Of a stretch of 64,000 bases of DNA, positions 31,654 to 57,925 are shown piece by piece. Source of the DNA: an uncultured Planctomycetia bacterium (GTDB lineage Bacteria > Omnitrophota > Gorgyraeia > CAYVEO01); NCBI GenBank assembly GCA_964449965.1, contig CAYVEO010000001.1, forward strand, positions 15,189 to 79,188. The letters are read 5' to 3'. The notes below the pieces were generated by a model. It saw only the letters and a list, made by a program, of their open reading frames with translations, ran no database searches and was not told the origin of the DNA. The position numbers and the translations under genes were made by a program. Numbering within the stretch: the first letter of the stretch is position 1; each line of letters opens with the position of its first letter.

Positions 31654-32625
31654 TTAGTATCCTGCCACTGCAGCCCACTTTTTATCGCCTGAAATCTCAA
31701 GCATCCTGTCCAATGACCTTTTGGCACGCACCCTTACCTCTTCAGGAACTTCAATGACGTTAGTCATAGTCTCAAGTGCATGTGCCACCCAACCCAGCGT
31801 AGTCAGTTTCATCGTTGGGCAGACTAACTTATCAGTGGGTATGTAAAAGGACTTATCAGGATTTTCTTTCCTGAGTCTATATAACATACCGGATTCCGTG
31901 CCGATGATAAATTTTCCCGCCCCGGATGCCTGGACATACTTGAACATCCCTCCTGTAGAACATATATGGTCTGCGCGGTTGAGCACCTCAGGATTACATT
32001 CAGGGTGGGCAACAAATTCTGCATCAGTATGTTCGCTCTTTGCCTGGACAACGTCCATTTCAGTGAGCCTTATGTGCGTGGGGCAAAATCCATTCCATGG
32101 AATTATTTTCTTTTCGGGAACCTTTGACTGAACGTATTTTGCAAGGTTTTTATCAGGGACGAAGATAACCCTTTTATGGGGTATGGAACGAACCACCTCT
32201 ATGGCATTGCTTGAGGTACAGCATATATCACTTTCAGCCTTAATCTCAGCCGATGTATTCACATAGCATACGACTGCGGCATCAGGATATTCCAGCTTCT
32301 TTGCCTTTAATTTCTCAACGGTTATCATGTTCGCCATCGGGCACCATGCCTCTTTTACAGGCAGGAGCACCGTCTTTTCCGGATTAAGTATTGAGGCGCT
32401 CTCTGCCATGAAATCCACTCCGCAGAATACAATCACATCCGCATCCGTGCCAACGACAGCCTGGCTCAATGCCAATGAATCGCCGCTTACGTCTGCTATA
32501 TCCTGCACCTCATCCCTCTGATAATTATGGACGATGATTATCGCATTTCTTTTTTCCTTGAGTTCCATTACCTTCTGTTTCAGGTCTTCTTTGTATTCTT
32601 TATCACTCTTCTCAAATCCTGTCAT
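31654..32625 (-). CDS. nadA: quinolinate synthase A
   Basis: 323 aa. IIVHNYQRDEVQDIADVSGDSLALSQ and three-repeat NadA fold with the conserved Cys triad. Confidence 0.85.
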   Translation of the reverse strand: MTGFEKSDKEYKEDLKQKVMELKEKRNAIIIVHNYQRDEVQDIADVSGDSLALSQAVVGTDADVIVFCGVDFMAESASILNPEKTVLLPVKEAWCPMANMITVEKLKAKKLEYPDAAVVCYVNTSAEIKAESDICCTSSNAIEVVRSIPHKRVIFVPDKNLAKYVQSKVPEKKIIPWNGFCPTHIRLTEMDVVQAKSEHTDAEFVAHPECNPEVLNRADHICSTGGMFKYVQASGAGKFIIGTESGMLYRLRKENPDKSFYIPTDKLVCPTMKLTTLGWVAHALETMTNVIEVPEEVRVRAKRSLDRMLEISGDKKWAAVAGY

Positions 32626-32642
32626 GTCATTTCACTCCTTAA

Positions 32643-32687
32643 ATTAGGCCGAGCAAGCTCGGCAACTACAATATTTTGAAATTCCTG
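32643..32687. repeat. 45-nt conserved intergenic hairpin element, copy 2 (in the nadA leader, downstream of panD)
   Basis: ATTAgGCCGAgCAAGcTCGGCAACTACAATATTTTGAAATTCCTG. The stem pair is flipped relative to copy 1. Confidence 0.7.
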
Positions 32688-32714
32688 TACTCTGAATTAG
32701 ATTCTCGTTATCTT

Positions 32715-56240: not shown

Positions 56241-56337
56241 TGGCGGAGAGGCCGGGATTCGAACCCGGGCTAGATCCTTTCAGACCTACTAACGGTTTAG
56301 CAAACCGCCCCCTTCAACCGTACTTGGGTACCTCTCC
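56241..56337 (-). tRNA. tRNA-Ser (anticodon GCU), class II with long variable arm, CCA encoded
   Basis: rc reads GGAGAGG-TA-CCC-AAGTACGGTTGAA-GGG-G-GCGGT-TTGCTAA-ACCGT-(23-nt variable arm)-CCGGG-TTCGAAT-CCCGG-CCTCTCC-G-CCA. Cloverleaf with U33, anticodon GCT, A37, T-loop TTCGAAT. Confidence 0.85.
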
Positions 56338-56346
56338 TTTGTATCT

Positions 56347-56820
56347 TCAATTATTAGAACACCTCTTTCTTCTGAAGAATTCCTGCATCAGAAGACGGCA
56401 TTCCTCTTCCATTAACCCCTTTTTAACCGTAATTGAGTGGTTAAGGCGCCTATCCTGCACTATATTCATCAATGAACCGCAGCTGCCCGACTTAGGGTCA
56501 GATGCACCATAGAATAATCTCTTTATCCTTGACAGGACCATCGCCCCTGCACACATGGGACACGGCTCTATCGTAACATAGACTGACGTATTTACCAATC
56601 TCTCATTCTTGAGATAGTCTGCTGCCTGTGTAATGGCTATCATCTCGGCATGGGCAGTAGGGTCGTGTAACAGGACGATTTGATTATGGGCACGGGCAAT
56701 AATCCTGCCCTCATAGACAATAACAGCCCCGACAGGAACCTCATCCTTATCAATTGCCTTCCTTGCCTCACTTATAGCCACTTTCATATAGTCATTATTA
56801 CTCATTGAAATAGGAGGCAT
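56347..56820 (-). CDS. tadA: tRNA-specific adenosine deaminase
   Basis: HAEMIAITQA...PCPMCAGAM CDA zinc motifs. 157 aa. Confidence 0.85.
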   Translation of the reverse strand: MPPISMSNNDYMKVAISEARKAIDKDEVPVGAVIVYEGRIIARAHNQIVLLHDPTAHAEMIAITQAADYLKNERLVNTSVYVTIEPCPMCAGAMVLSRIKRLFYGASDPKSGSCGSLMNIVQDRRLNHSITVKKGLMEEECRLLMQEFFRRKRCSNN

Positions 56821-56960
56821 ATTTATCTTTCAGAGGCATCTTTTGTGTGAGCGGGCACGGTGTCCGCCATTTCTTTTGGCGGACGAGCGAGCGCAAAAAC
56901 TGAGTGCGGTTTGCCACGCAGGGGCAAACAAACGACCGATGAAAGACAAATATGCCTCCT
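56812..56960. repeat. 20-bp imperfect inverted repeat (AGGAGGCATATTTRTCTTTC) flanking a 109-bp GC-rich structured core; the 3' arm contains the tadA start codon
   Basis: IRs at 56812-56831 and 56941-56960 (19/20 complementary). The core contains GTCCGCC/GGCGGAC and GTTTGCC/GGCAAAC hairpins. Core GC about 58% against a window background of about 40%. Confidence 0.5.
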
Positions 56961-57925
56961 CACGCCCACCACATCTTCCCTTTTTCCTCTACCATGATAA
57001 TCTCCTTGAGAAACTTCACAGCTTTGTTTAACCCTTCACTCATACTCATAAGACTGTCTTCATGTTCTATAGACAGGACATGGTCATACCCGACCATACG
57101 CAGGGTACTAATAAAATCCTTCCAGAAAGGAAAACCGTGTCCATAACCAACGGTGCGGAAAATCCACGAACGGTGCAATTCATCACCATAGTGCTTATTG
57201 TCTAAGACGCCGTTAATTGCGGTATTATACGTATCAATCTTTGTATCCTTGGCATGGACGTGGTATATAACGCCTTTTAATTCACGTATAGCAGCAATCG
57301 GGTCTATGCCCTGCCAGAATAAGTGGCTTGGGTCTAAGTTGGCGCCTATCTCTTTACCAACTGCGGCCCTTAACCTGAGCAATGTCTCAGGATTATAGAC
57401 CACAAATCCCGGATGCATCTCAAGGCAAATCATACTTACCCCATGGTCACGGGCATAAAGAGCAATCTTTTTCCAATATGGGACTACCTTTTTCTCCCAC
57501 TGCCATTTAAGGACGTTAGAATAATCCGGCGGCCAGGGACACGTTACCCAATTAGGATACTTAGCATTATCCGAGTCTCCGGGACAGCCGGAGAATGCGA
57601 TTACCCTCTTCTGACCCATCTGTTCTGCCAGAAGAATAGTCTGCCGCATGACACGGTCATTTTCCCGTGCAATCTTTTTATCCGGGTGCAGCGGATTACC
57701 ATGACAACTTAAACCGCTTATGATTAAGTCCCGTTTCTCAAATTCATCTTTAAATCTCTCCAAAGCATCCTTGTCCTTAAGCAGGATATCCGGGTCACAG
57801 TGTACCTTACCCGTGTAATTCCCACAGCCGATTTCCACAGCTTCACATCCGGCCCCGGATATATAATCCAGAGCCTCATGTAAAGGCTTTTGACTTAATA
57901 AAACCGAAAATACTCCAAGTTTCAT
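56960..57925 (-). CDS. sugar phosphate isomerase/epimerase (xylose isomerase-like TIM barrel)
   Basis: 321 aa TIM barrel with a conserved His/Glu/Asp metal-site pattern (HVHAKD...EHED). Confidence 0.55.
   Translation of the reverse strand: MKLGVFSVLLSQKPLHEALDYISGAGCEAVEIGCGNYTGKVHCDPDILLKDKDALERFKDEFEKRDLIISGLSCHGNPLHPDKKIARENDRVMRQTILLAEQMGQKRVIAFSGCPGDSDNAKYPNWVTCPWPPDYSNVLKWQWEKKVVPYWKKIALYARDHGVSMICLEMHPGFVVYNPETLLRLRAAVGKEIGANLDPSHLFWQGIDPIAAIRELKGVIYHVHAKDTKIDTYNTAINGVLDNKHYGDELHRSWIFRTVGYGHGFPFWKDFISTLRMVGYDHVLSIEHEDSLMSMSEGLNKAVKFLKEIIMVEEKGKMWWA

Follow-up and report, generated by a model that had tools for sequence, protein, structure and literature searches.

The 149-bp unit that fills the whole gap between a xylose-isomerase-like TIM-barrel gene and tadA in the 64,000-nt stretch of DNA analysed here (the window) is, with a probability that we put at roughly 0.8, a copy of a dispersed, insertion-polymorphic, non-coding, MITE-like palindromic repeat family of Candidatus Omnitrophota, recently inserted where the upstream stop codon and the tadA start codon overlap in a GTGA tetranucleotide. 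A previous, sequence-only reading had offered two explanations for the unit: a cis-regulatory switch for tadA of the thermometer or riboswitch-like kind, and a MITE-like insertion with terminal inverted repeats that had captured the start region. The second turned out to be essentially right, and copies, the outcome favouring a MITE, were found at unrelated loci in other groundwater and metagenome assemblies. The first did not hold, as the element is missing upstream of tadA in four syntenic close relatives and is present at unrelated loci. By the source names of its TadA homologues, the window belongs to Candidatus Omnitrophica. The features of the locus are:

56960 to 57925, minus strand: xylose-isomerase-like TIM-barrel gene, 321 aa, upstream of tadA in the same operon
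56806 to 56963, minus strand: all DNA that is extra relative to the relatives' empty site, 158 nt including a possible target duplication of 4-5 bp
56959 to 56963, minus strand: GTGAG, left copy of the possible target-site duplication, holding the ancestral tadA GTG (56963-56961), which overlaps the stop TGA (56962-56960)
56940 to 56960, minus strand: 5′ arm, AGGAGGCATATTTGTCTTTCA, with an SD-like AGGAGG at its beginning; it adjoins the TGA stop (56962-56960) of the upstream gene
56833 to 56939, minus strand: conserved core, 107 nt, 58% GC, with hairpins 1 and 2; its 5′ half pairs with its 3′ half in a rod-like fold
56862 to 56884, minus strand: hairpin 2, GTCCGCC-AAAAGAAAT-GGCGGAC, stem conserved
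56812 to 56832, minus strand: 3′ arm, TGAAAGATAAATATGCCTCCT, with TGA (56832-56830) and TAA (56825-56823), which close two frames running across the element; ATG 56820, also in this arm, is in frame with tadA
56806 to 56811, minus strand: 6-nt tail ATTTCA after the 3′ arm, also missing from the relatives' empty sites
56801 to 56805, minus strand: ATGAG, right copy of the possible target-site duplication; its ATG (56805) is homologous to the relatives' GTG
56347 to 56805, minus strand: tadA (tRNA adenosine-34 deaminase), likeliest start ATG 56805, with the in-frame alternative ATG 56820 inside the stem

The repeat search placed the arms at 56812-56832 and 56940-56960, each 21 nt long, complementary at 20 of 21 positions (95%) and separated by 107 nt. 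The near-complementary arms described earlier (56941-56960 and 56812-56831, 19/20) are real, and each extends by one further base. The sole mismatch, G56947 opposite U56825, is a G·U wobble on the minus-strand RNA, so that the RNA stem consists of 21 uninterrupted pairs. The arm occurs at only two sites in the 64 kb when up to three mismatches are allowed (chance expectation 0.01), and the GC content of the core is 57.9%, compared with 42.4% for the window. Folding of the minus-strand RNA gave a highly stable structure (-69.1 kcal/mol, z = -4.88), with none of 200 dinucleotide shuffles as stable; the plus strand of the element folds equally stably, as is expected of a palindrome. The two 7-bp hairpins previously proposed for a GC-rich core are both present in the sequence (hairpin 1, GTTTGCC/GGCAAAC, 56929-56909; hairpin 2, GTCCGCC/GGCGGAC, 56884-56862) and the GC richness was confirmed, whereas the core is 107 nt long and the minimum free energy and consensus folds contain hairpin 2 only. 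A promoter and terminator scan of the element revealed no promoter-like site, no sense-strand terminator, and no IHF site; its only terminator-like site is weak and lies on the opposite strand.

Comparison with four relatives defined the empty site. Gene order in L007 (GCA_016193245.1, TadA 98% identical), L008 (93%), and L005 and L006 (93%) is that of the window (Cgl0159-like gene, TIM-barrel gene, tadA, sigma-54 response regulator gene), and the element is lacking in all four, the TIM-barrel gene and tadA overlapping or lying 14 nt apart as annotated. The L007 and L008 junction reads GGGCGTGAATGAT, in which the tadA start GTG and the upstream stop TGA share GTGA. L007 is 98.1% identical to the window at the nucleotide level up to 56960 and 98.4% identical from 56804 on; the alignment breaks at these two positions, and three L007 bases align on both sides. 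From 56805, the window sequence ATG AGT AAT AAT GAC TAT ATG matches the relatives' GTG AAT GAT AAT GAT TAT ATG codon for codon, indicating that 158 nt (56963-56806) are extra in the window. The NCBI-derived annotation P0001 (152 aa, 100% identical) likewise starts at 56805. The element was therefore inserted recently into the GTGA overlap of the upstream stop and the tadA start. To the left of the insert stands GTGAG and to its right ATGAG, a sequence match that suggests a target-site duplication, although agreement at four of five bases could be due to chance. On the other side of tadA, a tRNA-Ser(GCU) gene (56241-56337, minus strand) follows the tadA stop after 10 nt and closely precedes the sigma-54 response regulator gene; the arrangement of tadA, a gap of ~120 nt, and the regulator is kept in the relatives.

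These comparisons bear directly on the proposal that the unit evolved as a conserved cis-regulatory RNA, be it a thermometer, a riboswitch, or a translational switch, which controls tadA by hiding its start codon. A very stable stem does bury an in-frame AUG together with an SD-like AGGAGG, and the 5′ arm has an alternative pairing partner at 56833-56843. However, the structure is not conserved upstream of tadA in relatives, being missing from L005, L006, L007, and L008, one of which is 98% identical at the nucleotide level, and the same element is found beside ccsA/ccsB, rodZ, and pseudopilin genes. Rfam searches, at the gathering thresholds and at E ≤ 10, of the window region and of two further copies (L009 and L011) on either strand yielded no family match, only tRNA-Ser and noise, and the homologous AUG 56805 lies outside the stem. 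A dedicated regulatory RNA is very improbable on this evidence, and the burial of ATG 56820 is incidental to the insertion.

The repeat nature of the element is apparent from the assemblies. Two independent Logan assemblies (L001 and L002) contain the identical upstream gene; each breaks off at window position 56915, within the core, and at the opposite end they differ. The shared break suggested a graph branch at a repeat. Position 56915 lies ~30 nt past the point where the L010 copy, described next, and the window copy become identical, and a de Bruijn graph breaks in just this way on meeting a repeat. A scan of a metagenome collection for an exact 22-mer of the core revealed two further copies, L009 (a Hainich groundwater assembly) and L010 (JGI contig Ga0209514_10002504), both cut by a contig end. 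A protein-database search with the concatenated translation of five of the six element frames retrieved P0121, which led to a complete copy in L011. The element is all that L009, L010, and L011 share with the window, and at each of them it is surrounded by housekeeping genes. The L009 copy lies 3 nt past the stop of a cytochrome c assembly gene (ccsA/ccsB), and the L010 copy ~6 nt past the stop of rodZ, a gene downstream of ftsK. The L011 copy is found 12 nt past a gene's stop codon and extends into the start of a prepilin-type (pseudopilin) gene.

Empty alleles were found at three loci (tadA, ccsA/ccsB, and rodZ), in relatives that are 90-99.6% identical. The ccsA/ccsB locus is empty in L013 (94.5% identical at the nucleotide level) and L015, where the start of hemA follows 3-6 nt past the stop; the empty junctions read TTTTTTTAAAATATG in L015 and TTTTTCTAAAAATATATG in L013, and the filled junction of L009 reads TTTTTTTAAAA|GCAGTAGACATATTT. 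The rodZ locus is empty in L012, which matches L010 with 99.6% identity along the 5,770 nt that end at the stop and then passes into an unrelated 48-nt spacer, and in L014 (same MAG as L007), where a gap of 7 nt precedes the next gene. Just past the rodZ stop, L010 (from 10638 onward) and L012 (5771-5819) diverge completely, and the 48-nt AT-rich spacer of L012 is missing from L014; this junction thus appears to be a hotspot for small indels or insertions.

Two further relatives were recognised at the protein level, by searching the frame-2 translation against all protein-cluster representatives. P0243 is 98% identical over 104 aa to the PgpA of L014 (L014 7701-8135), and past that match it continues as the frame-2 translation of the 3′ half of the element, RFLRSLVRHKTWRTPCPFAQKMPLKGKHVS. 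Judged by its protein sequence, P0243 probably represents a fifth, intragenic copy in pgpA, in which the hairpin-1 segment is deleted and which truncates the host gene; the native pgpA DNA at the switch point, CTCTTCAGGTTATTTGACATATG, resembles the element arms. P0245, a 157-aa ORF rich in Ala, Gly, and Arg, contains two diverged translations of the core (FAGTFVCPCAADRTQ...PCPL) spaced 68 aa apart, which may point to a related but more distant repeat family, perhaps arranged in tandem, in another, GC-rich organism. The other two frame-2 matches, P0242 and P0244, proved on inspection to be spurious tandem-repeat proteins.

Additional searches were negative within their respective scopes. A profile of the copies (nhmmer) detected no further or degenerate copies in the window and all fetched loci, three core patterns had no match among viral contigs, and blastn had none in plasmid and phage collections. 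An arm-pattern scan of genome contigs, in which the source species is apparently not represented, gave two single matches inside coding sequences of unrelated MAGs, which are taken to be chance. One copy lies in the 64-kb window, and the evidence for multiple copies within a single genome consists of the assembly breaks.

The core is ~95% identical among the window, L009, L010, and L011, and two types of arm occur, GGCATATTTGTCTTTCA in the window and (A)GACATATTTACCCTTCA in the other three, whose 5′ arms read (A)GACATATTTACCC and contain neither AGGAGG nor UUG. The arms of L011 are ~18-21 nt long, and its fold is more extreme than that of the window copy (z = -7.3). Between the window and L011 arms, two pairs have changed in a compensatory manner (G-C to A-U and U-A to C-G), and one G·U has become A-U. 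The outer extension of the stem is AGGAG/CTCCT in the window and AAAGGAA/TTCCTTT in L011, so that its sequence differs and its complementarity stays. The stem of hairpin 2, GTCCGCC/GGCGGAC, is kept in L011 around a different loop, ATAAATCTT, and L009 has a shorter version of the hairpin, GTCC-TTC-GGAC. Pairing of the 5′ half with the 3′ half gives a rod-shaped consensus fold; the core, nearly invariant across the 3-4 sequences, shows no covariation. The unit measures ~150-158 bp with terminal inverted repeats of ~21 bp, ends that are approximate, as they are drawn from two complete copies and, for L011, from an inferred empty allele.

The position and orientation of the copies are also uniform. 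All four DNA copies and P0243 are co-oriented with their host genes, an orientation bias of p ~0.03-0.06 with five copies, and the copies are located at tight gene junctions, no more than ~10 nt from the downstream start codon wherever the junction could be judged. In the window, 51 of 55 long ORFs lie on the minus strand (by a crude first-ATG scan), so that the co-orientation of this copy carries no information by itself.

Conservation is higher in the core than in the arms, the reverse of what is seen in a typical MITE, which hints at a functional core. Uniform co-orientation with host genes is, similarly, not predicted for a simple cut-and-paste DNA element. Both observations could be explained if the core were a functional mobile module of structured RNA or single-stranded DNA that must be in the sense orientation within a transcript, such as an unrecognised small ribozyme, a protein-binding RNA, or a strand-specifically transposed or retro-mobile element. 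Such a module would also fit the ~95% identity of cores whose arms differ, the retention of the hairpin 2 stem while its loop varies or a shorter hairpin is substituted, and the presence in P0245 of two copies of a more distant relative of the core translation. Against it, no Rfam family, ribozymes included, was matched, both strands fold equally well, and the case is built on 3-4 sequences with nil core covariation and on an orientation bias computed from five copies. We consider a functional module of this kind unlikely. A related and similarly doubtful proposal is that the family is an orientation-dependent "portable intercistronic module", which lands at, or survives only at, the start regions of operon-internal genes, brings along one or more start codons within its 3′ arm (in the commoner subfamily, AAGGUAAAUAUG), and carries a conserved structured core that is recognised by a cellular or element-encoded factor.

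The MITE-like assignment is derived from size, ends, and distribution. The 149-bp unit, well below the ~300-500 bp that bound a MITE, accounts for most of 158 extra nt and has no capacity to encode a transposase, being crossed only by frames of at most 53 codons; the window arms match at 20 of 21 positions, with the 6-nt non-repeat tail following the 3′ arm; and the family is dispersed and polymorphic over four DNA loci (window, L009, L010, and L011) and, probably, P0243. A duplicated target is seen at four of five bases in the window (GTGAG/ATGAG), the 3′ ends of L009 and L010 being missing and the empty allele of L011 being only an inferred one. No second arm-like sequence, as would mark a parent IS or transposase gene, was detected in the window or the fetched loci; (A)GACATATTTACC is proposed as the end sequence with which a parent IS could be matched.

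Several established classes of element were considered and set aside. The arms AGGAGGCATATTTGTCTTTCA and TGAAAGATAAATATGCCTCCT have neither the R″ (RYYYAAC) nor the R′ (GTTRRRY) motif of an integron attC site, and the flanks are syntenic housekeeping genes rather than cassettes. A REP or BIME mobilised by a RAYT transposase was rejected since the unit is ~150 bp and GTAG occurs only at the 5′ end of L009 (GCAGTAGAC), and is not found in the window, L010, or L011. A target of the IS200/IS605 type would show a common 5′ flanking tetranucleotide, and the left flanks differ (GTGA, AAAA, ATAG, and AAGG). Membership in the Correia family was likewise excluded, as the sequence and the phylum are different and there is no TA duplication, leaving a resemblance that is architectural only. 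Because sequence, host, and target site all differ, the element belongs to neither the Correia nor the Rickettsia palindromic element (RPE) families; the family is a new one of MITE, Correia, or RPE-like type, with no match in Rfam or in the phage and plasmid collections. A full-text literature search returned no paper on miniature inverted-repeat elements in Omnitrophica or on MITEs in Omnitrophota.

The closest architectural parallel is the Neisseria Correia repeat-enclosed element (CREE, or nemis). The Correia element is 153-157 bp long and has inverted repeats and a conserved core; internally deleted variants occur, and its transcripts are cut by RNase III (PMC2649163). Like CREE, the element described here is ~150 bp long, has terminal inverted repeats (21-26 bp across CREE and the present family) around a conserved directional core, occurs in length variants, shows insertion polymorphism between close strains, and is positioned beside or inside genes. 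CREE is co-transcribed, and its arms form a long hairpin that is an RNase III substrate in Neisseria (PMC2649163), whereas cleavage of the present element is only putative. There is no sequence similarity between the two, the phyla differ, and the Omnitrophota element carries no promoter-like or IHF site. CREE further differs in its clear TA (or CA) target duplication and in its abundance (>100 copies per genome), the duplication being uncertain here and the copy number no more than one per 64 kb.

RPEs, which are ~150 bp long, insert in frame into genes (PMC10969869). In a similar manner, an open frame crosses the L011 copy and continues into a prepilin-type gene, an in-frame status that depends on the inferred empty allele, and P0243 is a PgpA fused to an element translation. 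Unlike an RPE, the window copy is intercistronic, the frame of the old start ends in the 3′ arm, and there is no sequence relation. If the native L011 gene began MKG|FMLLE, the insertion would comprise 156 nt (52 codons), and its location in a leader that is removed by prepilin peptidase would explain why it is tolerated.

REPs located near stop codons affect neighbouring mRNA and its translation. ERIC and REP-type repeats are imperfect palindromes found in operon junctions and 3′ UTRs, which are transcribed and affect mRNA stability or the translation of neighbours (PMC10969869). The present element shares with them the form of a palindrome at an operon junction. However, REPs measure 20-40 nt and depend for their mobility on RAYT transposases, which recognise a GTAG end that is not conserved here, and ERIC is enterobacterial and unrelated in sequence to the Omnitrophota element.

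The insertion changes the setting in which tadA is translated. The sequence-only reading placed the tadA AUG and two Pro codons in the 3′ arm, and held that the start is sequestered. ATG 56820, followed by CCT CCT, is indeed in the tadA frame within that arm, and in a 381-nt transcript model its probability of being unpaired is 0.003. The homologous start, by contrast, is ATG 56805, which lies 6 nt outside the stem and is largely accessible (P(unpaired) 0.82), although, with only 6 nt separating the two, a ribosome that initiates there would need to melt some of the stem as well. Roughly half of the genes of this organism use SD sequences, and neither AUG 56820 nor AUG 56805 has a good one. 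The 5′ arm had been described as a decoy SD plus AUG; the AGGAGG is there (P(unpaired) 0.014), but there is no AUG, the nearest start-like codon being UUG 56949, 5 nt after the SD. The old tadA starts, GTG 56972 and GTG 56963, remain coupled to the upstream stop, and frames 0 and 1 are each closed by a stop codon within the 3′ arm, shortly ahead of the in-frame AUG 56820. Two ORFs of the element are relevant here:

56823 to 56972, minus strand: proposed relay ORF of 46-49 codons, from the ancestral tadA GTG 56972 or 56963; it crosses the whole element and stops at UAA 56825-56823, 2 nt before ATG 56820
56830 to 56949, minus strand: 39-codon ORF LSFIGRLFAPAWQTALSFCARSSAKRNGGHRARSHKRCL, with AGGAGG, 5 nt, and UUG 56949, running to UGA 56832-56830 and ending 9 nt before ATG 56820

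The mechanism preferred here, a model inferred from these features, is a termination-reinitiation relay. The element would be co-transcribed with the operon and would form a long hairpin that buries AGGAGG and AUG 56820. Ribosomes might initiate either at the old GTG, through its coupling to the upstream stop, or at the element's SD-UUG, and would melt the hairpin in their passage. On terminating at the UAA or UGA in the 3′ arm, these ribosomes could reinitiate at AUG 56820 or AUG 56805. As an alternative or additional route, RNase III could cut the 21-bp stem, and would thereby free the downstream tadA start.

The second of these ORFs also raised the question of whether the unit is a type I toxin-antitoxin-like or leader-peptide cassette, the product of which would be the 39-codon peptide LSFIGRLFAPAWQTALSFCARSSAKRNGGHRARSHKRCL, silenced by fold-back of the 5′ and 3′ ends. 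The SD is strong and has a 5-nt spacing to UUG, the N-terminal half of the peptide is hydrophobic and the C-terminal half basic, and the SD is fully sequestered by long-distance pairing, as in the hok and AapA1 mRNAs. The AGGAGG and UUG are, however, specific to the window copy and not a family feature, for they are absent from the (A)GACATATTTACCC arms of the other three, and a different frame is open in L011. Translation searches yielded no small-protein family, their matches comprising two host fusions (P0121 and P0243), P0245, and the two spurious proteins. Because the SD and UUG are unique to the window copy, the cassette reading, which we regard as exceedingly improbable, was rejected.

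The insertional origin of the unit removes a false lead, in that there is no tadA riboswitch or thermometer here, and adds an apparently undescribed family of small mobile repeats to Omnitrophota, a phylum known almost only from metagenomes. The element breaks assemblies, as three fetched contigs and two Logan contigs end inside it (the ends of L001, L002, L009, and L010 represent at least four samples), and it misleads gene callers, as exemplified by P0121 and P0243, in which host proteins are fused to element translations. tadA is essential in E. coli. By splitting a translationally coupled junction before tadA, the insertion provides a natural experiment on how coupling is rescued. The consistent orientation and the start-codon-proximal position, together with the unusually conserved core, are the remaining curiosity of the family.

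A second short repeat was observed in the same genomes. A 65-nt sequence, CAGGAATTTCAAAATATTGTAGTTGCCGAGCTTGCTCGGCCTAATTTA, which contains a GCCGAGC/CTCGGC hairpin, is present as a single copy in the window (32635-32699, minus strand) and at an unrelated locus in L014 (8768-8831), the two being 94% identical. In both cases it ends at the SD of the downstream gene, which is the ORF at 31654-32625 in the window and a ybaB-like gene in L014; this repeat may be a portable 5′-UTR or promoter cassette.
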